Below are positions 6,125 to 15,481 of a DNA stretch of 53,719 nt, one piece after another (the first letter of the stretch is position 1; every line of letters starts with the position of its first letter). Origin of the DNA: Candidatus Levyibacteriota bacterium (GTDB taxonomy: Bacteria; Patescibacteriota; Microgenomatia; Levybacterales; UBA12049). The position numbers were made by a program, and so were the translations under genes. The stretch lies in NCBI GenBank assembly GCA_016180725.1, contig JACPAR010000015.1, positions 1-53,719 on the forward strand, in the 5' to 3' direction. The notes under the pieces are model-generated. The model did not search any database and was not told where the DNA came from. It worked only from the letters and a program-made list of their open reading frames with translations.

Positions 6125-6859
6125 ATGCTTGAACAAATCGCAGAAAGAATAGGAAGAGTTATAAAACCACATTTTTATACACGTGTTGAAAATAGTATTA
6201 ACGCTTATAATCTTTATGTTTATAACATAGAAAACTTAGAACTTTTAAAAGGAAACCCGTGTGTTTTTGTTGCAAACCACATAAAGCCTGAAGGTGATAA
6301 AAATGTTTACCGTTCCTCAGGTTTAAGTCCCGATTCGTTTTTATTAAGAAGAGTAATTCTTAATACACTTGGTCAAGACGTGCATTTTGTTGCTCAATAC
6401 GATCCTAATGATCTTGGGACATTAAGAGATAAAATTCCAGGCGCACGCAGCGTACTTAAAAGATTTCATAAAGGCATGCTTCGGGGATTCGATGTTATTC
6501 CTGTGTCAAAAAGAACCGGTGCTGTAAATGTTGATTTTTTCAGAGACGCAAAAACAGCCGTTGCAAGAAAAGAATCGATATTCATTTACCCCTTTGAAGA
6601 TTGGATGGATGACTTTAATCCCGAACAAAAAATTGAGTCCGGAGCAGCTTACCTTGCGCAAAAGTTAGATGTCCCAATCTTTCCTATTTATGTCTTTGGT
6701 TGTAAAACATGGAACCCAAAGCCAAACCAAGAAACAACAATCGTATTTGGTAAACCATTCTCCGCAAAAGGGATAACGATTGAGCAAACAAATAGTAAAA
6801 TAAGAGAAGAACTAACAGCTTTACAAAATTTAGTAAGAGCTAAAAACCATGAACAATAG
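6125..6859 (+). CDS. Lysophospholipid acyltransferase family (PlsC-like), divergent
   Basis: VFVANH motif, IPVSKR, IFIYPFE, SGAAYLAQKLDVPIFPIYV, IVFGKP. Confidence 0.75.
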   Translation: MLEQIAERIGRVIKPHFYTRVENSINAYNLYVYNIENLELLKGNPCVFVANHIKPEGDKNVYRSSGLSPDSFLLRRVILNTLGQDVHFVAQYDPNDLGTLRDKIPGARSVLKRFHKGMLRGFDVIPVSKRTGAVNVDFFRDAKTAVARKESIFIYPFEDWMDDFNPEQKIESGAAYLAQKLDVPIFPIYVFGCKTWNPKPNQETTIVFGKPFSAKGITIEQTNSKIREELTALQNLVRAKNHEQ

Positions 6860-8051
6860 GCTTAACCAAACAAAAAATTTATTAACAAAAAATTCCCTGG
6901 ATGCAATTCTTGTCTCCTCTATTCCAAATATTACTTATCTCACAGGCTTTTCTAATTTTTCCAAAGACGAACGGGAAGCATTTGTTGTTATCGTGGCTCA
7001 ACCCCTGGCTCAACCCCAGGGGTTGACGCACAAAACCCCTGGGGTTACAGGGTATATTATTACCGATGGAAGGTATTCCGAAGCAGTACAGATTTCTGTC
7101 CCCCACTTTGAGCTTATCGAACGAAATGTCAATAATACTTTAAAACAGATCTTTTCATCTCTTTTAAAAAAACATCGCATAAAAACAGTTGGCATAGAAG
7201 AAAATAACATCTGTGTTGCAGAATACAAAGCATTCAAAAAACTTTTTCCCAGAATAAAACCGTTCGATATATCGTTGTTACGAACAATAAAGTCAAACGA
7301 TGAAATTAAAGCAATCGAAAAAGCTTGCGAGATTGGAGACAAAGCATTTGAGTACATATTGGAGCAGCTTAATGAAGATTTAACCGAAAAGGATGTAGCA
7401 TTCCTACTTGAACATTTTATTAAAAAACAAGGCGCTGACCTTTCGTTTCCAACAATAGTCGCCTTTGGTAAAAATTCTTCCATCCCCCACCACCAAACAA
7501 GTAATCAGCGCCTAGCGTCCAGCGGTCAGTTTGTGTTAATTGATTTTGGAGTAAAATTGAATAATTATTGCTCCGACATGACCCGCACGGTATTCTTTGG
7601 TAAAGCAACTGATGAACAAAAAAAGATGTACCAAACTGTGTTAGAAGCACAACAGAAAGCCATCGACTTTCTTACTCAACGTCATTCTGAGCGAAGCGAA
7701 GAATCCCCAAGGGCTTCTTTAAAGCGGAGTGGATCCTTCGGCCTGCGGCCTCAGGATGACGGTCGGATGAAAGCAAGTGACATTGACAAAGTTGCACGTG
7801 ATTACATTGTTAATAAAGGTTATCCAACCATTCCCCACTCCCTCGGCCATGGCATTGGCCTTGAAGTTCATGAAGCTCCACGGCTTTCCCCAAACTCCAG
7901 TGATGAACTTAGAGAAGGCATGGTGTTCTCGATAGAACCTGGAATTTATTTACCGGGCTTTGGAGGCGTGAGAATCGAAGATCTTATCGTTCTTGAAAAA
8001 TCCGGCCATAGATCTCTAACAAAATCCCCAAGAGGCATGATTATAATTTAA
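6849..8051 (+). CDS. Xaa-Pro aminopeptidase/dipeptidase (M24B)
   Basis: DGRY, IDFG..YCSDMTRT, HSLGHGIGLEVHE, IEPGIY, GVRIED; carries two palindromic inserts. Confidence 0.95.
   Translation: MNNRLNQTKNLLTKNSLDAILVSSIPNITYLTGFSNFSKDEREAFVVIVAQPLAQPQGLTHKTPGVTGYIITDGRYSEAVQISVPHFELIERNVNNTLKQIFSSLLKKHRIKTVGIEENNICVAEYKAFKKLFPRIKPFDISLLRTIKSNDEIKAIEKACEIGDKAFEYILEQLNEDLTEKDVAFLLEHFIKKQGADLSFPTIVAFGKNSSIPHHQTSNQRLASSGQFVLIDFGVKLNNYCSDMTRTVFFGKATDEQKKMYQTVLEAQQKAIDFLTQRHSERSEESPRASLKRSGSFGLRPQDDGRMKASDIDKVARDYIVNKGYPTIPHSLGHGIGLEVHEAPRLSPNSSDELREGMVFSIEPGIYLPGFGGVRIEDLIVLEKSGHRSLTKSPRGMIII
6993..7047. repeat. Intragenic palindromic element (CAACCCC/GGGGTTG family)
   Basis: TCAACCCC-A-GGGGTTGA plus AACCCCTGGGGTT; related GGCTCAACCCCAGGG at 52590. 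Confidence 0.7.
7680..7761. repeat. Intragenic REP-like palindrome (GTCATT..GAGCGAAGCGAA..ATGAC family)
   Basis: CGTCATTCTGAG...CTCAGGATGACG terminal inverted repeats; in-frame insert RHSERSEESPRASLKRSGSFGLRPQDDG. Confidence 0.85.
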
Positions 8052-8104
8052 AAGCTAAGCGATGTTTCGATAAGTTCATCTACTCTACCACTCTCAATGT
8101 ATTT

Positions 8105-9277
8105 TTACAACTCTTTCTCTGCAAGTCTTGCACCCTGCACAGTTGCTTGCAATTTTCTAAAAGCTACTTCCCATGCTCTAGTCCTAAGTCCGCAGTCAGG
8201 CGTTGGATTAACCAGACTTGAATCACCAAGTAATTTTGCCGAATAAAGAATACGGTCCCTTACAAGTTCCGGGCTTTCGAGAAAATTTGTATGAATATCG
8301 GTAACGCCAAGACCAATACGTGATGGAATCTTATATTTTTTAAACCAGGAAAGAATTTCGTATCCTGGACGGTTCCCCTCTTTAGTTCCTAATGTTTTTG
8401 AATCCCGATTAGATAACTCTAATGCATACTGGCTACAATTCTCCATTTTTTGGATATGGGGAAAAAGAAGCCGGTAATCAGAATAACAAATATGCACGCT
8501 AAACTGCCCTTTTAAACCCTTTACCGACTCATTAAACGACTCAACAAATAGCGGAACTTCTGATGGAATTGTTGTTGCAGCCGGTTCATCAATTTGTATC
8601 CAACCTGCACCATTTTCTATAAGCATTTTTATGTTTGGACGAATTAGAAACTTAGCAATATCTAAAACAAATTTACGCCGCGCTTTTTCCTTGTTTTGAA
8701 GCGCAACTTTACCACCTAGTCTTTGAGCTTTCTTTCCATAGTATTCATCAAAAGACCATGCAGCAATAGTATATGCTCCGGTAATTGGGATTTTTATTAC
8801 TCTGTCCGTATGCTTTTTTAAAAATGCTAATTCTTCTAAATGCCAGGGTTTTTTTAGTTTTGGCTTTCCAACGCATGCCGCTTTTTGATAATATTTATTA
8901 TCAAAAGACCTCACCAATCCTCTAAATACAAAGCCATAACAACGATTAACCGCGTATTGATACATCTCGCTCCGCTGCTGCTCCCCATCGTAAACAATAT
9001 CAAGCCCAGCCTTTTCCTGCATGCGGATTGCGTAAATAGATGCCCATTTTTTAATTTCATTCCTGTCACGGGTGCCAGGGTTTTTCTTTTGAAGAAGCAA
9101 TATTAATGGGTCATAGTCAATATCGAATCGCTTACCCCAAGAAACTGCATCCTTGATATCTTCATCTGTAATTTTTTTTCCTAGCGCAACCTTTACCCGC
9201 CATTCGGGTTTTGCAAGACTTCCTATTTCGTGCGTAAGTAAATGTATCATATTATTTTTGGAAATATGTTTTAACAT
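8105..9277 (-). CDS. metE: Cobalamin-independent methionine synthase, catalytic (C-terminal) barrel
   Basis: EIGSLAKP, DGEQQR, PITGAYT, IQIDEPA, Zn ligands HICY, E, PDCGLRT; start may be the Met at ~9250. Confidence 0.9.
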   Translation of the reverse strand: MLKHISKNNMIHLLTHEIGSLAKPEWRVKVALGKKITDEDIKDAVSWGKRFDIDYDPLILLLQKKNPGTRDRNEIKKWASIYAIRMQEKAGLDIVYDGEQQRSEMYQYAVNRCYGFVFRGLVRSFDNKYYQKAACVGKPKLKKPWHLEELAFLKKHTDRVIKIPITGAYTIAAWSFDEYYGKKAQRLGGKVALQNKEKARRKFVLDIAKFLIRPNIKMLIENGAGWIQIDEPAATTIPSEVPLFVESFNESVKGLKGQFSVHICYSDYRLLFPHIQKMENCSQYALELSNRDSKTLGTKEGNRPGYEILSWFKKYKIPSRIGLGVTDIHTNFLESPELVRDRILYSAKLLGDSSLVNPTPDCGLRTRAWEVAFRKLQATVQGARLAEKEL

Positions 9278-10202
9278 CTTTTAGAATTAAAAGTTTTTTT
9301 GCTGCAACTTCTTCTGGTAAAAATTCTATATCTGAATTGTTTGCAATATATAAAACTTTAGGGTCAAGTCTTTTAAGAGTCTCTTTTATAAAAGACCTTA
9401 ATATAGCTTTATTTTCAAGAAGCGAATTCCTTCCGTCAACAATACCGGCAATAATATCAAATGGTATACGCCTTGGTAATGACTTAAGTGTTGTTTTATA
9501 AAAATCAACACCAACAACATCTGCTAATTTTTCATTACATAATTTTAAAACAAAAGGCGCCGCATCACCAAAATAAAAATGCACTGCAAATAAAGAATTT
9601 CCTTTTGATTTATATAAAGTTTTAAGTGAATCGATAAATAATTTTAGATCTTGATCATTTGCTCCGTGATATGGAAGATAAGGCTCGTTAAGCTGAATAA
9701 ATGATACACCCTTTTTATTTAAGTATTTTATAATTAATTGCAATATTTCTGTTGTTTTTGCAAGTCTTTCCTCAAAGGAGGCATCTCCTTCGCTTAATTT
9801 TGCAAATGTAAAAGGAGATGGCAGTGTTACTTTCCATTTTTTTGAGGGTTTTGTGTTTGGGAAAAAATCATCAAGCTTTCCGGTGTTTAAACGAACCTTT
9901 TTGCTAAAAATCGGTTGGCGGAAAAAGCTGTTGTTATTGAACCACCGGGTAAGCGCACCAACTTCTAAACCTTGCGTTGCTAAAACAATGGGTCGGAAAA
10001 TATCTTGCCAAGAAAGTTTCCCATCTTCGATGTAATCAAACGCTGCAGATTTCTGAAGCTTAAAAAGTTTTACAAGATCTGCTTTTTCTTGTTTTAATAA
10101 ATCCTTTTGAGAAAGGCGATTACGATCTACATCTCTACTTGTTTGGACAAGTTTTGCAGAGCGTGGATAAATACCATGTATAAAGTTTGCTATTTGTGTC
10201 AT
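9252..10202 (-). CDS. MetE N-terminal-barrel-like subunit (split MetE)
   Basis: GIYPRS, DGKLSWQD, TRWFNNNSFFRQP, LPSPFT, IQLNEP, YFGD, GIVDGRNS; lacks Zn ligands. Confidence 0.85.
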   Translation of the reverse strand: MTQIANFIHGIYPRSAKLVQTSRDVDRNRLSQKDLLKQEKADLVKLFKLQKSAAFDYIEDGKLSWQDIFRPIVLATQGLEVGALTRWFNNNSFFRQPIFSKKVRLNTGKLDDFFPNTKPSKKWKVTLPSPFTFAKLSEGDASFEERLAKTTEILQLIIKYLNKKGVSFIQLNEPYLPYHGANDQDLKLFIDSLKTLYKSKGNSLFAVHFYFGDAAPFVLKLCNEKLADVVGVDFYKTTLKSLPRRIPFDIIAGIVDGRNSLLENKAILRSFIKETLKRLDPKVLYIANNSDIEFLPEEVAAKKLLILKDVKTYFQK

Positions 10203-11170
10203 ATTATTTTTCTTCTTGGTTGATTTAAATATATATTAGATAATTCTTCAACAAGAATAAAAGAAAGTTCAAGATTGTGAATACTAACATGCTCTACGTT
10301 TAAACCTAATGGAATACAAATACCATTTTCTTTTACAAAACGCAAGATATCAGAAAGAATTTTTTTGCACACCTGAATTGAATTCCATCCCATACCAATC
10401 CACCCTGTTGCCAACTTTTTGATGGTTTTTTCGGGAACATTAACGCCTAACCACCTAAGAAGCTCCACATCCTTTGGTGTTGCAATAGGCGCAAAACTTA
10501 AAAATACCATTGGAGGTTTAATATGTTTTTTCACGCACTCTTCCCACAACTGCTTAAGAAATTGCTTGATAAACCAATCTTCGAAAAGAATTTGTGTTGT
10601 AAAAAATGTAATACCTGATTGTGTTTTTTGCAAGACCCGCAATATCTCGTGTTTGCGAGTTGGAATAATAATACCACCTAAACAAATATTTGGAAATTCT
10701 TCTTGAAATTGACCTTTCACCCACGCTGCCGCATCGTTTACCGATAATCCAGGATATGCAATTTTACTTGACTCCCCCCCAACAAAAACATAATTTTGCA
10801 CATTATATTTTCGACAGGTTTCTTTTAACCACAATTGCTGTTTTTCCCATGGCAAATAGACAATGGGTCTATTAATAATAAGATCCCACATACCGTACTT
10901 TTGCAAGAACGGACAGACGAGTCTTGGCTCCATTTTTGCCAATGCAGGCGAGATTCGAATGCCATTACGGGTTTCTTCCCGAACTTCCGGTAGGTTAATC
11001 GCATCAACCGGGAATTTCGAAAGAATAGTGGCAAAGAGCGAGATCGACTTGTCGATGTCTTGAGAAGATAAGTTTTTTGGCGGCGGAAGAAATTCATAAA
11101 GAATTGTTTTATCCCCTCTTCTAATTTTTTGGGCAAATGTTTTTTTGATGGTATTTTTTTTCATTTTCAT
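10199..11170 (-). CDS. Methylenetetrahydrofolate reductase-like, resembling the mycobacterial type
   Basis: YEFLPP, INLPEV, FVGGE, GGIIIPTR, G..FFTTQIL, LSF, L.WLG, GLNVE; sits in a Met operon. Confidence 0.75.
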   Translation of the reverse strand: MKMKKNTIKKTFAQKIRRGDKTILYEFLPPPKNLSSQDIDKSISLFATILSKFPVDAINLPEVREETRNGIRISPALAKMEPRLVCPFLQKYGMWDLIINRPIVYLPWEKQQLWLKETCRKYNVQNYVFVGGESSKIAYPGLSVNDAAAWVKGQFQEEFPNICLGGIIIPTRKHEILRVLQKTQSGITFFTTQILFEDWFIKQFLKQLWEECVKKHIKPPMVFLSFAPIATPKDVELLRWLGVNVPEKTIKKLATGWIGMGWNSIQVCKKILSDILRFVKENGICIPLGLNVEHVSIHNLELSFILVEELSNIYLNQPRRKII

Positions 11171-11250
11171 ATCTTAATGATGCCTCTTTTCTTTTAATGT
11201 ATTTACGATAATTTTTATATACGATGGATTTGTCCCACAACATCCGCCAA

Positions 11251-11742
11251 TTAACAATGCGCCATCTTCAACCCATCTCGAAACTGAACTTGCATTACCA
11301 CCAATACTTCTTCTATTTCTCGACTTAAATAATCTTCTGCTGGTTCTGTCCTACCAGACAATGGATCTGCAACTTCCTCCCCAACCCTGATAAACCAATG
11401 GGTTACAGGATCTCCATTTTTGCCTCTTTGTCTTTTTTTACCTGCCACTAAATATGGTACTTGCGAATCATATGTATCTGGCGGAAATTCCAATTCAGCT
11501 CCTGTTAATGCTGTAACCTGATCTGAAGATAATCCATCTGCACTAATGGGCAAAGTGCCTATCGGCCAACCAAGCATACTTAGACATGCTTCTCCACAAT
11601 AACTTGATCCTTCCGGTTGTCTTAACACAAACAATGCAACCTCACCAACATGAAAAACATCTCCTGTTGGAGTAAACACCCTTGGATCAGGTTGAACTTT
11701 TTGATCTATTCTTCCCTGTCTGTATGCTTCTATGTCTGCCAT
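11251..11742 (-). CDS. Papain-like/C39-like cysteine peptidase-domain protein
   Basis: Q....CG.ACL.M (LRQPEGSSYCGEACLSM), HWFI, ADP catalytic pattern. Confidence 0.65.
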   Translation of the reverse strand: MADIEAYRQGRIDQKVQPDPRVFTPTGDVFHVGEVALFVLRQPEGSSYCGEACLSMLGWPIGTLPISADGLSSDQVTALTGAELEFPPDTYDSQVPYLVAGKKRQRGKNGDPVTHWFIRVGEEVADPLSGRTEPAEDYLSREIEEVLVVMQVQFRDGLKMAHC

Positions 11743-11746
11743 AAGA

Positions 11747-12922
11747 TTATTGGAATTTTCTTAGTCCTTCTTTGAAAGCCGTTGTTAATATTTCCATTTG
11801 CTCTGGAGTTTCTAATCCACCAGAAACGCGAACCGCAGAATAACTTGGATCAAACCATATACGTGTTTTAGGAAAACCAAAACTTTGTCCTAACTCACAA
11901 AGTTCTCTTACAGTTGGATTATCCCATAAAGCCTGTGCCATGGCGTATTGATCTTCATCGTTAAATCCCATGGATTGAATATAAAACACTGGCGATGCTC
12001 CATCTGGAAATAACCTTTGCGCTAATTTAAAATTGGGATGGGAAGGTAGATTTGGGTGAAAAACAGCAAATTTTCCAGTCTCCTCACCAACCTCAGCACA
12101 AGCTTTTGCAAGTGCAAGTGTGTTTCTAAAAATTACTTTATTTCTCCTATCAAATTCTTCTTTTGTAGGCAAAATTACTTGCTCTACTGTTCTAACTGTA
12201 GACGGCGGTGTTAAAGACCCTATCATTTGCCTTCTTCCTCTTAATTTAGCAAGAATATCTTGATTATTTGTTGTTGCTATACCAAATATATCTTGATTCA
12301 ATGCATAAAACTTTGTTCCACTTTCTACAACAATTACGGGAAATGGCAAATCTTTTATTCTCTTTGCCAACGGTAAACCAGTAGGTGTTGCAAGTGTATT
12401 ATCTAATATAATTAGGGGTTTCTTTTCTAAAGCTGCAACTTCTGCAAACAGCTCCTCGGTATCCAGAACTGGCATATCCTGCCCGTTTGTTACCGTCTCG
12501 AAAAAAACAATATCTGGATTCATCCTTCTAATTGCGCTGGAAACAGAAGTTGGAGAACCTGTATCAACCATTGCAACGCGAGCGCCCCGTTGATCCCTCA
12601 GAACATTTTCTACATACCGTCCTATCTGGCTATAAAATTGCTCTGGATACAGGGTAACCGTATCCCTACTTGGGCCGGCTATTTCCAATGCATCAACAAC
12701 TGCACTCATACCTGTGTTGTATAAAACAACATCTTTGCCCTCTACCCCCATTAACGTACCTACGTGTGCCTCCAGCCTCGCTAACGCAAGTGTTCCGTCA
12801 CGAAAATACAAATTTTCAGGCTTTCCTGTTCGCTTTGCTTCCAATGCACACCTTGCCGCCTCAATTGACGAAAAAGGTGGTACTCCGCTTATTCCTCTTT
12901 CTATAAATGTTGCTACTGCCAT
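11747..12922 (-). CDS. PLP-dependent Cys/Met metabolism enzyme (cystathionine gamma-synthase/beta-lyase family), divergent
   Basis: Y.R, NTGMSAV, FETVTN, LDNTLATP, ESGTKF (PLP lysine), SFG, RVSGGLE. Confidence 0.85.
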   Translation of the reverse strand: MAVATFIERGISGVPPFSSIEAARCALEAKRTGKPENLYFRDGTLALARLEAHVGTLMGVEGKDVVLYNTGMSAVVDALEIAGPSRDTVTLYPEQFYSQIGRYVENVLRDQRGARVAMVDTGSPTSVSSAIRRMNPDIVFFETVTNGQDMPVLDTEELFAEVAALEKKPLIILDNTLATPTGLPLAKRIKDLPFPVIVVESGTKFYALNQDIFGIATTNNQDILAKLRGRRQMIGSLTPPSTVRTVEQVILPTKEEFDRRNKVIFRNTLALAKACAEVGEETGKFAVFHPNLPSHPNFKLAQRLFPDGASPVFYIQSMGFNDEDQYAMAQALWDNPTVRELCELGQSFGFPKTRIWFDPSYSAVRVSGGLETPEQMEILTTAFKEGLRKFQ

Positions 12923-12950
12923 AAAAAAACCTCTCTAAAAAAGAGAGGTT
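12923..12950 (-). terminator. Riboswitch expression-platform terminator that also overlaps the RBS
   Basis: AACCTCTCT-TTTTT-AGAGAGGTT followed by a T-run that abuts the ATG; GAGG lies in the 3' stem. Confidence 0.8.
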
Positions 12951-12987
12951 ATACTTTTTTCCCACTTCGCATTAAGCTCCGCGGGAC

Positions 12988-13125
12988 GCATCCTCCCCTT
13001 TAAGGGCTGGGGTTAGCACCGTGCTCGAATGAAAGGTCCTTCGTCGCAAAGCTCCTCAGGACGACCTTCGGTCGGTTGCTGGGTGAGTCATCGGGCCAGT
13101 CCCCTCGTCACCACTCTTTATGTTT
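12988..13125 (-). ncRNA. SAM-I clan riboswitch (SAM-I or SAM-I/IV)
   Basis: CATAAAGAG..GAGGGGACTGGCCCGATGA..CAGCAACC..CACGGTGCTAA..GGATG; upstream of a Met operon. Confidence 0.9.
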
Positions 13126-13135
13126 AATTGTTATT

Positions 13136-13187
13136 ATTATAAAGATATTCTTCGCCACTTGTCAAGATGGGCTTTTTGTGGTATATT
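13136..13187. promoter_or_regulatory. Overlapping divergent sigma70 promoters
   Basis: Minus strand TTGACA(13165-13160)-N18-TATAAT(13141-13136); plus strand TTGTCA(13159)-N17-TATATT(13182) with extended TG. Confidence 0.75.
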
Positions 13188-13207
13188 ATTAATAATCGAA
13201 AACTAAA

Positions 13208-13459
13208 AGCGCCCAAGCGAAGTCACGATTCGCGATGCTGATCCCCAAAATGGGATACGGAAGTTGAACCGTAAAATCCAACAGTCGATGTCAGCCTAGC
13301 GGAGTCGGCCTGAGAGTCTTAAAGGAAAATACTTTAAGAAATAAGGATGGGACCGCGGGAGGTCCCGATTTTAGTTTTTAGGGGTTAGGTTTTAGGTATT
13401 AGAGAAACTAATAACTACAAACTAATAACTAATTACTAACTATCGCCTCTCGTTCCTTA
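13208..13459 (+). ncRNA. T-box riboswitch, probable His (CAC) specifier
   Basis: Stem III TCTTAAAG/CTTTAAGA; TAAGGA-[TGGGACC bulge]-GCGGGAGG pairs with CCTCTCGT-TCCTTA (13446-13459); short 5' stem with CAC in its loop; hisS downstream. Confidence 0.75.
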
Positions 13460-14091
13460 CTTTACTCGTTGAGGATTGTCCAAGAAACGAGTGGGATCGT
13501 ATTGCTAAAGAAGGCTTACAAACTGTTGAGCAAGTTGGATTTATAGCAACAAATATACCATTCCCCACTCTTACCATGATGGGCGGAGAATTAAGTATTA
13601 ATGGTACGCTTGCATTCGCCAGACGACTGGACGGATCCGGGCAACTACAAACAAGCGGACTTTCTTCGTTGATAGATTACGAAAATAGAAATGGAACAAC
13701 ATCCATTAGAATTAACATGCCTTACAAAACTGATCGTTCAATTTTCGCAAATGAAGACGGAAAAAACAATATTGTTTTATTTGAAGGTATTGGCTATTTA
13801 TGCACTAACAAACAATCTGCCCCTACGATGGGCGAACTTGTTACCTTAGCTGAAAAATACAAATTACCTGCTTTTGGAATAGTTATCTATAGCAATAATC
13901 AAATTTTTCCGTTTGTTTATGTTGGTAAAACGCAATCTATGGTCGCTGAAAGTGCTTGCGGCTCTGGAAGCATTGCGTTGAATATTCTTACCGGTCAACA
14001 ACGGATAGTACAGCCAACAGGAAAAACAATAGAGGTTAATCATGTTAAAGATAGATTTACTATAACGGCTAAAGTTGATATGATAAGGTAA
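13429..14091 (+). CDS. DapF/CntK (histidine racemase)-like protein, 5' end lacks a start codon (possibly truncated)
   Basis: Frame open from 13429: TLLVE..EQVGFI..MMGGELSING..ESACGSGS..QPTG; first ATG is at 13576. Confidence 0.65.
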   Translation, partial: LITNYRLSFLTLLVEDCPRNEWDRIAKEGLQTVEQVGFIATNIPFPTLTMMGGELSINGTLAFARRLDGSGQLQTSGLSSLIDYENRNGTTSIRINMPYKTDRSIFANEDGKNNIVLFEGIGYLCTNKQSAPTMGELVTLAEKYKLPAFGIVIYSNNQIFPFVYVGKTQSMVAESACGSGSIALNILTGQQRIVQPTGKTIEVNHVKDRFTITAKVDMIR

Positions 14092-14215: not shown

Positions 14216-15481
14216 ATGAAAAATGTTGAACCAAAAACTTTAAAAGGATTTAGAGATTTTTTACCCAAGGAGACAAAAAAGAGGCAGTATGCAATTGATA
14301 CCTTGAAAAAGGTGTTTGAGTCCTATGGCTTTGAGCCACTAGAAACTCCGGCGCTTGAATACGAAGAGGTTTTACTTGGTAAATACGGCGAAGAAGGAGA
14401 TAAACTTATGTATCGGTTTGTGGATAACGGTGGCAGAAGAGTTGCATTGCGATATGACCAAACCGTTCCCCTTTCCCGCGTTGTTGCGCAGTACTCGCCT
14501 CGCGGCGGAGCGGGCCAGAATGAATTATCAATGCCGTTTAAAAGATATCAGATTCAACCAGTTTGGCGGGCGGAAAACACGCAAAAAGGAAGATTTAGGG
14601 AATTTTTACAGTGCGATGTAGATATCGTAGGCACTACCTCTCCCCTTTCTGATGCCGAGGTTATTGCTGTTGCTACAAACGCACTCAAAACCTTAGGTTT
14701 TAAAGATTATAAAGTTTTAATAAACGATAGAAATAATTTTTCTTACTTTCAGGAATCGATGAATCTATCCCAAGAACAAGTAATGGCAGTTATTCGCGCT
14801 ATTGATAAACTCAAAAAAATTGGCAGAGATGGAGTTATAAACGAACTTAAGGAAAAAGGATTTTCTTACGATCAGGCCGCAACTGTAATCGACAGCATCA
14901 GCAACATTAAACCAACAGAATATATTCTTGAGATTATGCAAAACCTTAAAAAAATGGGCATTAAGGAAGAGCGCATTCAATTCTATCCCACACTTGCTCG
15001 AGGCCTCGACTACTATACAGATTTAATTTTTGAAATTGAGATCGAAGGGTATACTGCCGGTTCTGTGTGCGGTGGAGGCAGATATGACAAACTCATTGCT
15101 ATGTTTTCCGACAAAGATATTCCTGCTGTTGGTTTTGCCTTTGGGTTTGACAGATTGATTGAGGCGATGGATGCCCTAAAGTTATTTCCAGATAATTTGG
15201 AAACAACCAAGGTGCTTGTAACTATTTTTTCTAAAGAACTAAAAGAAAAATCCATTGAAATCAGTTCTCGACTTCGCTCGAACAATATTAATACCGAAAT
15301 TTACCTAGACGAAAATGCAAAGCTAGAAAAACAACTAAAATACGCAGATCAAAAAGGAATCCCTTATGTTGTTGTTATTGGCCCTGAAGAAGCAGAAAAA
15401 AACCAAATAACCCTTAAAAACATGCAGACTAGAGAGCAAAAAACATTTAATCAAGAAGGTTTAGTCAAAGAACTAGCCTGA
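14216..15481 (+). CDS. hisS: Histidyl-tRNA synthetase
   Basis: KGFRDFLP, LRYDQT, GRFREFLQCD, RGLDYY, GGGRYD, GFAFGFDR, anticodon-binding C-terminus. Confidence 0.98.
   Translation: MKNVEPKTLKGFRDFLPKETKKRQYAIDTLKKVFESYGFEPLETPALEYEEVLLGKYGEEGDKLMYRFVDNGGRRVALRYDQTVPLSRVVAQYSPRGGAGQNELSMPFKRYQIQPVWRAENTQKGRFREFLQCDVDIVGTTSPLSDAEVIAVATNALKTLGFKDYKVLINDRNNFSYFQESMNLSQEQVMAVIRAIDKLKKIGRDGVINELKEKGFSYDQAATVIDSISNIKPTEYILEIMQNLKKMGIKEERIQFYPTLARGLDYYTDLIFEIEIEGYTAGSVCGGGRYDKLIAMFSDKDIPAVGFAFGFDRLIEAMDALKLFPDNLETTKVLVTIFSKELKEKSIEISSRLRSNNINTEIYLDENAKLEKQLKYADQKGIPYVVVIGPEEAEKNQITLKNMQTREQKTFNQEGLVKELA

Follow-up and report, generated by a model that had tools for sequence, protein, structure and literature searches.

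Cobalamin-independent methionine synthase divided over two adjacent genes (split MetE) is described by Price, Deutschbauer and Arkin (2021, PMC7857596), in the passages of that paper that bear on it, mainly from archaea plus one Sulfobacillus, with PF1268/PF1269 of Pyrococcus furiosus as the prototype and with methyl-tetrahydrofolate (methyl-THF) or another methyl pterin as the predicted methyl donor; GapMind 2026 keeps split MetE as 'predicted' in its entry (PMC13759103). The first-pass annotation of the DNA analyzed here had likewise called split MetE mostly archaeal, in agreement with what that 2021 paper says of it. According to the usual description, bacteria of the candidate phyla radiation (CPR) cannot synthesize amino acids, a rule that is broken by a small clade with a riboswitch-regulated methionine route, probably from aspartate. 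The present analysis concerns such a route in a stretch of 53,719 nucleotides from Candidatus Levyibacteriota bacterium (assembly GCA_016180725.1, contig JACPAR010000015.1, positions 1 to 53,719; hereafter the window). Its minus strand carries, from 13165 to 8105, a promoter, a SAM-I riboswitch aptamer, a terminator and then five co-oriented genes. We read the whole locus as one transcription unit, repressed by S-adenosylmethionine (SAM), through which a Levybacteria-type CPR cell would complete its synthesis of methionine, and we give this reading a probability of roughly 0.7. In the route proposed, the first two genes, a pyridoxal phosphate (PLP) enzyme with the small protein orf163 as its partner, would supply homocysteine; a reductase of the Mfr or 3IJD type would convert 5,10-methylene-THF to 5-methyl-THF; and the two MetE halves, joined as a methionine synthase that needs no cobalamin, would methylate homocysteine.

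Organization of the locus

The features, in order of transcription, are as follows.

13136..13165, minus strand: sigma-70-type promoter, TTGACA-18-TATAAT, 12/12 consensus matches
12985..13126, minus strand: SAM-I (S-box) riboswitch aptamer with a 43-nt P3 insertion and a short P1 (RF00162, 41.5 bits)
12923..12984, minus strand: putative expression platform, a small hairpin and then a terminator (terminator-like site and pairing analysis)
11747..12922, minus strand: PLP gene, divergent Cys/Met-metabolism enzyme, 'type A', 391 aa (PF01053, 75.8 bits, cut-off 27)
11251..11742, minus strand: orf163, small Cys/His protein, 163 aa (conserved Cys/His motifs and predicted models; no family match)
10199..11170, minus strand: (beta/alpha)8 reductase resembling methylenetetrahydrofolate reductase (MTHFR) (3IJD-family profile match; PF19345 22.2 bits, PF02219 16.8 bits)
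9252..10202, minus strand: MetE_N, N-terminal (folate-binding) barrel, 316 aa (PF08267, 65.6 bits)
8105..9277, minus strand: MetE_C, C-terminal catalytic barrel, 381-390 aa, likely start 9250 (PF01717, 108.1 bits)

The promoter ranks first of 17 promoter-like sites in 7900-13700 and lies about 10 nt upstream of the aptamer, and the orthologous leaders of relatives have similar promoters upstream. By the coordinates of the open reading frames (ORFs) the PLP gene and orf163 are separated by 4 nt, orf163 and the MTHFR-like gene by an 80-nt spacer that holds no terminator, and the MTHFR-like gene overlaps MetE_N by 4 nt. MetE_N overlaps MetE_C by 26 nt; with the tenth codon of MetE_C as its start, which its 381-aa database form suggests, the two genes would instead lie 1 nt apart. 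The elements that the first-pass annotation had named, namely the riboswitch, the PLP enzyme, the MTHFR-like gene, MetE_N and MetE_C in a common orientation, were all found, on the minus strand.

Riboswitch and expression platform

The leader aligns with the SAM-I model RF00162 over its full length (model positions 1-108, 41.5 bits, E 7.3e-08 in a 901-nt search) and is the only match to that model in a whole-genome search (E 1.5e-8). The conserved core and junction nucleotides of the aptamer are intact across the whole model. In the scan for SAM-I elements, which covered seven of the eight related loci with the reductase, MetE_N and MetE_C genes (hereafter the trio) together with a separate scan of a sister copy, L012 of genome G012, a match lies directly upstream of the reductase in six of the seven (55.2, 50.8, 47.2, 45.1, 41.0 and 29.2 bits), and the one locus that shows none, L010, has a sequence that ends 105 nt upstream of that gene. 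An additional match (44.6 bits) stands ahead of a MetC-like gene in L015, so that five orthologous aptamers in four relatives, at 44.6-55.2 bits, pass the Rfam gathering score. The aptamer of one relative, L011, is identical to that of the window over the first 24 nt and differs by two substitutions in the following 31.

For a covariation test we drew the P1/P2a/P2b/P3/P4 structure by hand (21 pairs) and applied it to eight aptamers (168 cells), leaving out L012 because its 3' half fails to align. In all, 93.5% of the cells are paired and 8 of the 21 pairs show changes on both sides; structures slid along the alignment pair in only 31-54%, and the observed covariation score was matched by none of 500 shuffles. 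The four-way junction of P1-P4 is thus backed by covariation. Judged by its alignment, the riboswitch of the window is real and orthologous to the copies that pass the Rfam cut-off.

Downstream of the aptamer, a terminator of the form AACCUCUCU-UUUUU-AGAGAGGUU, followed by a U-run, forms a hairpin at 12950..12928 that ends 5 nt before the ATG at 12922, and its 3' arm holds AGAGAGG, the sole Shine-Dalgarno-like sequence of the first gene, the PLP gene. An antiterminator of the classical type can form between the 3' strand of P4 (AAAGGGGAGG) and the terminator's 5' arm; a truncated leader folds at -24.3 kcal/mol, and the antiterminator duplex is calculated at -10.0 kcal/mol against -12.2 kcal/mol for the terminator hairpin. 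Terminator and antiterminator are mutually exclusive in the window, and the leaders of eight relatives have the same layout. When SAM is plentiful, the aptamer would bind it, P4 and P1 would stay closed and the downstream hairpin would form, which would both terminate transcription and mask the Shine-Dalgarno sequence ahead of the PLP gene; at low SAM the antiterminator pairing would form instead, and transcription would continue into the operon.

Some features of the window copy weigh against this mechanism. Its score falls 2.9 bits short of the Rfam gathering score of 44.4, so that a search at the gathering threshold misses it, and its P1 is weak, with three Watson-Crick pairs and mismatches on both flanks. 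Together with the 43-nt insertion in P3, these features would fit a riboswitch that is decaying or has been retuned and that no longer responds to SAM, leaving the operon constitutive or under some other control. The sister copy in G012 points the same way: cmscan did not detect it as SAM-I at E<=0.01, by eye it has the same leader with a shortened J3/4 region, and it precedes a MetE_N gene lying in two frames. We consider decay or retuning very improbable, however: the conserved core has been kept, the leader of L011, near-identical over the first 55 nt of the aptamer, passes the cut-off, one P1 pair of the window copy is preserved by a compensatory double change from A-U to C-G, and the terminator/antiterminator logic is intact.

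Split methionine synthase and methylene-folate reductase

The two MetE genes divide the domains of the full-length enzyme between them, MetE_N matching Meth_synt_1 alone and MetE_C Meth_synt_2 (PF01717) alone. MetE_N scores 65.6 bits against PF08267 (cut-off 27) and has no match to PF01717 at E<=0.01; it aligns with residues 107-307 of the full-length MetE 2nq5 (E 9e-9) and reaches 75-76 bits with the NCBIfam models PRK08575, PRK06438 and PRK04326. MetE_C scores far better against models of short-form methionine synthases (PRK04326, 254.7 bits; PRK01207, 245.8 bits) than against the full-length model TIGR01371 (97.8 bits), though the former scores fall under the NCBI cut-offs of 406 and 399. 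Its motifs HICYSD and PDCGLRTR correspond in the alignment to HMCYSD and PDCGLKTR of the Thermotoga maritima MetE, motifs of the zinc/homocysteine site, and we take the zinc-ligand residues to lie within them. In the published definition, as far as its description in PMC7857596 goes, the N-terminal part should match Meth_synt_1 above the cut-off and better than Meth_synt_2, be at most 400 aa long and lie adjacent to its partner, and the C-terminal part should reach at least 200 bits with P. furiosus PF1269 within 400 aa, a value for which the PRK04326 and PRK01207 scores serve here as proxies. MetE_N has PF08267 above its cut-off, is 316 aa long and overlaps or abuts MetE_C. Split MetE in this genome carries a mostly archaeal enzyme form into the CPR. 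By title, a literature search returned no report on methionine synthesis in CPR, and the supplements of PMC7857596 and PMC13759103 may list split MetE in these bacteria.

The reductase that precedes MetE_N was identified by a profile of 26 family members. Profile positions 7-310 align with residues 4-306 of 3ijd_A, an 'uncharacterized protein', a full-length match at E 1.2e-44; the flavin-independent reductase of Mycobacterium smegmatis, 7wmw, follows at E 7.6e-11, the M. hassiacum Mfr structures 8bgr and 8qpj come next (E about 1e-7), and matches to classical MetF are no better than E 0.47. Within the family E66 and Q193 are invariant in the 26 sequences and E26 occurs in at least 90% of members, and these residues align with E9, E53 and the glutamine of MTQLLY in 7wmw. 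In hMfr, according to Gehl et al. (PMC11094777), Glu9 is catalytic, and Glu55 and Gln177 belong to the pterin site. The single reductase of the window, taken alone, lies below both Pfam cut-offs (PF19345 at 22.2 bits against 27, PF02219 at 16.8 bits), which counts against its assignment; at family level PF19345 is matched by 18 of the 26 members and PF02219 by 17 (E<=0.01). On these profile comparisons the reductase appears to be a homologue within the 3IJD family of (beta/alpha)8 enzymes, related to the flavin-independent Mfr. An earlier statement that this MTHFR resembles the mycobacterial type therefore holds in so far as the family is nearer to that flavin-free type than to classical MetF, and has to be amended in that its nearest relatives belong to the 3IJD family. 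Serine hydroxymethyltransferase (glyA) and FolD are encoded elsewhere in the genome, so that methylene-THF can be supplied.

The constant pairing of split MetE with a 3IJD-type reductase suggests a function for this solved and uncharacterized protein family. We believe that 3IJD was deposited with bound 5-methyl-THF, and a literature search for 3IJD/Cthe_2304 found nothing relevant.

Host and conservation of the module

The host assembly comprises 768,608 bp in 44 contigs and is 80.5% complete; relatives measure 0.6-1.8 Mb. The closest locus, L010, comes from a metagenome-assembled genome (MAG) of Candidatus Levyibacteriota, a lineage placed in the Patescibacteria group, with 80% identity in MetE_C, and shares with the window pepP and two further genes beside MetE_C. 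A genome of 0.77 Mb and a syntenic Levyibacteriota MAG bear out the earlier assignment of the host to the CPR. That assignment had been set against the case of a non-CPR host in whose lineage the operon is common; we checked this case and found a CPR host with MetE_C in one of 40 relatives.

The module is rare as well as conserved. MetE_C was found in 3 of 400 genomes sampled from the phylum, hom in 6 of the 40 relatives, and the PLP family in one of the 40. The reductase, MetE_N and MetE_C stand in the same order in 8/8 related loci, and the riboswitch, the reductase and split MetE form a conserved unit in nine CPR genomes. The eight trio MAGs are labelled Candidatus Levyibacteriota, Shapirobacteria and Patescibacteria group, three of them bearing the generic label 'uncultured Gammaproteobacteria'. 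A metagenome search recovered 3,421 proteins of the MetE_C clade at E<=1e-20; the best 120 of these 3,421 are at least 53% identical and mostly have no source name; where a non-CPR source is named, it is Acetothermia/Bipolaricaulia (56-57% identity).

The first-pass annotation had seen in the operon a horizontally assembled mosaic. The shared site next to pepP in L010 and the genome-like composition (GC 0.32-0.415 in the operon genes, 0.366 in the genome) argue against recent assembly in this genome, and riboswitch, reductase, MetE_N and MetE_C recur as one block in all eight CPR loci, so we do not retain that view. The variable part around the conserved block is its PLP genes, and in some relatives orf163 is fused to the PLP gene. 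Among the 40 relatives, the sole carrier of the module (L006/L012, G012:C2) has its MetE_N in two frames, for which decay or an assembly error are both possible.

Source of homocysteine

The PLP enzyme is, by its domain match and alignment, a bona fide if divergent member of PF01053, in a clade of its own found mostly in CPR. Its PLP lysine K204 (ESGTKF) and D174 (LDNTLATP) align with those of methionine gamma-lyase 7bqw. Against the NCBIfam equivalogs (MetB, MetC, MetY, MetZ and MGL) its best score is 77.9 bits where the cut-off is 477, and none of the matches listed (25 of 29) comes close; they include weak matches to cystathionine beta-lyase models. About 97 strong homologues (at least 32% identity) come mostly from CPR sources, the named sources being Daviesbacteria, Microgenomates, Saccharimonadales, Dormibacteraeota and an unclassified bacterium. 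It is the single Cys/Met PLP gene of its own genome. In L047, L050, L051 and L053, distant members of the family (~480 aa) stand ahead of a tandem array of four to six genes, each of ~270-300 aa.

The enzyme probably forms homocysteine, and its substrate is probably a homoserine derivative made by way of the cell's own ask, asd and hom genes. In the host genome ask, hom and an archaeal-type asd form an operon on contig C14. In locus L013 a single co-oriented run comprises a fusion of PLP enzyme and orf163 (PLP::orf163), ask-hom, asd, a P-loop kinase, a SAM riboswitch, the reductase, MetE_N, MetE_C and a second divergent PLP gene. In genome G028 a block without the trio unites ask-hom, asd, the same kinase (72% identical to that of L013) and two PLP genes, one of type B and one canonical. 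In L054 thrC (270 bits) runs into the beginning of a gene of the PLP family, after which comes a P-loop kinase that resembles shikimate kinase. These three contexts tie the PLP family to homoserine or phosphohomoserine.

Two of these loci, L013:23-9802 and L058 (G028:C52:1-6560), are near-complete aspartate-to-methionine superclusters in CPR relatives, and the conserved 212-214-aa P-loop kinase directly after asd in L013 and G028 is a candidate non-orthologous homoserine kinase. The ask-hom-asd operon of contig C14 is adjoined by another P-loop kinase of 170 aa (C14:1623-2135, plus strand, = L018:1623-2135), whose match to Sep-tRNA kinase is weak (33.9 bits), and, on its opposite side, by msrA; this kinase has the P-loop alone in common with that of L013 and G028.

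The strongest competing account, and the one that the first-pass annotation had adopted, is that the cell scavenges: it would import cystathionine, homocysteine or sulfur-containing peptides, orf163 would be a peptidase that sets them free, the PLP enzyme would be a C-S lyase of the beta-lyase type with homocysteine as its product, and nothing would be made from homoserine. CPR are described in PMC11665869 as without amino-acid synthesis and rich in transporters and proteases, which favours such a view, as do the predicted cysteine-peptidase-like fold of orf163, the cystathionine beta-lyase models among the weak matches of the PLP enzyme, and the fact that no homoserine-activating enzyme was found in the assembly. 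Yet ask, hom and asd have been kept, and nothing in the assembly clearly consumes homoserine (thrB was not found, and the only thrC-like gene scores far under the cut-offs); moreover, the PLP::orf163 fusion of L013 stands directly ahead of ask-hom and asd, and other members of the family adjoin thrC or ask-hom/asd. Because ask, hom and asd are encoded and relatives of the PLP gene stand beside homoserine genes, synthesis from aspartate is the likelier source. The earlier proposal of scavenged cystathionine or homocysteine gives way to homocysteine derived from homoserine, and we hold scavenging to be unlikely, though by no means negligible.

A second competing account has the pair work in the reverse direction or in a side reaction. 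The PLP enzyme and orf163 could act as a gamma-lyase or desulfhydrase that yields cysteine, sulfide or persulfide from homocysteine, methionine or cystathionine, and could be merely co-transcribed with the methionine genes. The best solved relatives of the PLP enzyme are methionine and cystathionine gamma-lyases; the fused gene of L033 lies between cysS and a methyltransferase with metK; and in L039 and L042 a gene resembling phosphoadenosine phosphosulfate (PAPS) reductase lies directly upstream of the PLP family member. However, a switch that is turned off by SAM suits the formation of methionine, the Cys/Met PLP genes of relatives (of other types than that of the window) follow MetE_C or carry a SAM riboswitch of their own, and the PLP type of the window is linked to homoserine-pathway genes. 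A reverse or side reaction therefore seems to us quite improbable, and formation of homocysteine from a homoserine derivative remains the preferred direction.

The partner protein, orf163, is harder to place. It has no match in Pfam, NCBIfam or PHROGs (0 of 11 members) nor, as a family profile, among PDB sequences, and four small members of the family have no Pfam match at E<=1, the C39 families PF03412 and PF13529 included. A HMMER search of 1.84 billion representatives gave 17 matches, of which 11 are plausible relatives; the remaining six are long proteins that match in multiple stretches and were dropped, both of those checked being WD40 repeats. The alignment of 11 sequences has C49, L54, G58, H115, G130, A135 and Y138 invariant, with a glutamine conserved 6-7 residues ahead of the cysteine and 'DP' common after the histidine. 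Compared by hhalign with seven C39 domains of relatives, orf163 aligns over 10 columns at the cysteine motif (SYCGEACLSM against NNCGPASLSM) at a probability of 7%. ESM Atlas models of orf163 and of a paralogue have predicted TM (template modelling) scores (pTM) of 0.79 and 0.72, and the nearest structural neighbours of both models include Peptidase_C39/C39_2 clusters and staphopain, at TM 0.54-0.62, every one of them marked as below the level at which a family would be named. The first-pass label 'C39-like' draws on the conserved Cys/His motifs and on the comparisons of predicted models, and lacks a match to any sequence family; as a description of the predicted fold, though not as a family assignment, it is reasonable.

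The strongest clue to the function of orf163 is its fusion with the PLP enzyme. A single polypeptide holds both in L013 (527 aa), L033 (533 aa) and P0118 (537 aa), and, going by length alone, probably also in P0041 (528 aa) and P0062 (544 aa). No member of the orf163 family was found among the 400 phylum genomes. The pair of PLP enzyme and papain-like protein is a concrete candidate for the missing step of homocysteine synthesis. A tentative and on balance doubtful proposal is that the two make up a two-component homocysteine synthase, in which orf163 would either O-acylate homoserine through an acyl-cysteine intermediate, replacing MetA or MetX, or release or relay a sulfur-bearing product. 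If true, it would give some CPR a complete aspartate-to-methionine pathway.

A route by way of a thiocarboxylate carrier was considered as well, in which orf163 would hydrolyse the carrier adduct, in analogy to Mec, which PMC13759103, where it is listed, gives as the carrier-adduct hydrolase of the MetM/MetO pathway of Streptomyces. This route has no support here: no ThiS-family match was found in the 80.5%-complete assembly, and the only ThiF domain of the genome lies within a 667-aa open frame on contig C3. The thrC-like gene of contig C11, tried as an analogue of MetM, was rejected, as it sits in an unrelated-looking operon and scores far under the cut-offs. The second copy of orf163 in the genome (C30:33756-34220, plus strand, = L068:1480-1944; 154 aa, E 6.8e-19) has a multi-pass membrane protein on one side and a large convergent gene on the other, and its Atlas model also neighbours C39 clusters.

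Several further observations weigh against the route from aspartate to methionine as we have drawn it. In the host assembly, at its 80.5% completeness, we did not find metA, metX or thrB, nor metK of either type, nor a sulfur carrier of the ThiS type, and none of the genome's three PALP genes (ilvA, trpB and a divergent thrC-like gene) is a cysteine synthase. No known enzyme thus activates homoserine here, and the route would presuppose both an activating step and a sulfur donor. The best solved relatives of the PLP enzyme are gamma-lyases at only ~44 bits, and the setting of the fused gene in L033 also fits cysteine formation. Of the 23 metagenome loci that contain a gene of the PLP family, 2 also encode the orf163 domain, which most of the family can therefore do without, and the second copy of orf163 is unlinked to the operon.

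Part of this can be set against the other trio genomes. Among the eight, metX is found in none, metA in one (a partial match), hom in five and metK in seven, with metK directly after MetE_C in G012/G443. Because metK is present in seven of the eight, its absence here is probably an assembly gap, and the missing activation of homoserine is general among trio genomes. As regards thrB, the GapMind 2026 text gives it as missing from 8% of prototrophs, with other kinases expected to substitute (PMC13759103). The earlier statement that the window holds no homoserine acyltransferase proves correct for the window and extends to the genome, where none was found.

Other features near the operon

Divergent from the met operon lies an element resembling a T-box leader (13203-13375, plus strand; 31 bits, where the gathering score is 93; E 6.4e-05), with a terminator-like hairpin at 13348-13367 and a fold z-score of -3.3, upstream of a 171-aa ORF and hisS (14216-15481). 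The ORF (13576-14091, plus strand), which stands between this leader and hisS, matches a histidine racemase model at 34 bits over positions 56-247 of 254 only, so that an N-terminal truncation or an unrecognized start is possible. On the far side of the operon, pepP (6849-8051, plus strand), an Xaa-Pro peptidase, has two in-frame insertion-like stretches, around QPLAQPQGLTHKTPGVTG and HSERSEESPRASLKRSGSFGLRPQDDGR.

Comparison with known systems

The components of the locus can each be set beside a described relative. With the SAM-I or S-box riboswitch (RF00162), as found ahead of Bacillus met genes, the leader shares the four-helix aptamer, the terminator/antiterminator platform and the control of methionine genes; it differs from a typical SAM-I element in a score slightly below the gathering threshold, a short P1, a long P3 insertion, and a single hairpin that would serve as both terminator and Shine-Dalgarno mask. 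The reductase is related at profile level to the Mfr enzymes (MSMEG_6649, 7wmw; hMfr, 8bgr/8qpj) and has kept equivalents of Glu9, Glu55 and Gln177, whereas the family to which it belongs is far nearer to 3IJD (E 1.2e-44 against 7.6e-11) and the window protein itself lies under the PF19345 cut-off. The PLP enzyme has in common with the family of cystathionine gamma-synthases, O-acylhomoserine sulfhydrylases and gamma-lyases (PF01053) the gamma-family domain of fold type I and the conserved PLP lysine and aspartate, and is set apart from the equivalogs of that family, among the matches listed, by scores far below their cut-offs, by its own mostly-CPR clade and by its occasional fusion to an orf163 domain. 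With peptidase C39 and other papain-like proteins orf163 shares the Gln...Cys-Gly...His pattern and the C39 clusters that neighbour its predicted model, but not membership in the sequence family. Mec, which we take to be a JAMM metalloprotease and so of another protein family than orf163, is, as far as its listing describes it, a precedent in kind for a hydrolase attached to a homocysteine-forming PLP enzyme.

The likeness to split MetE, as characterized in the relevant passages of PMC7857596, extends to two adjacent genes of at most 400 aa, one with Meth_synt_1 only and the other with Meth_synt_2 only, to a catalytic half that is nearest to short-form models, and to a predicted methyl pterin or folate as donor. 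The host here is a CPR bacterium where those passages name primarily archaea, and here, unlike there, a SAM-I riboswitch lies upstream and the two genes are always preceded by a dedicated Mfr-like reductase. Taken together, the riboswitch, the reductase and split MetE are a system of known kind in a rare host; what appears to be new is the divergent PLP enzyme with its papain-like partner, placed between the switch and the trio, and the retention of the branch from aspartate to homoserine.

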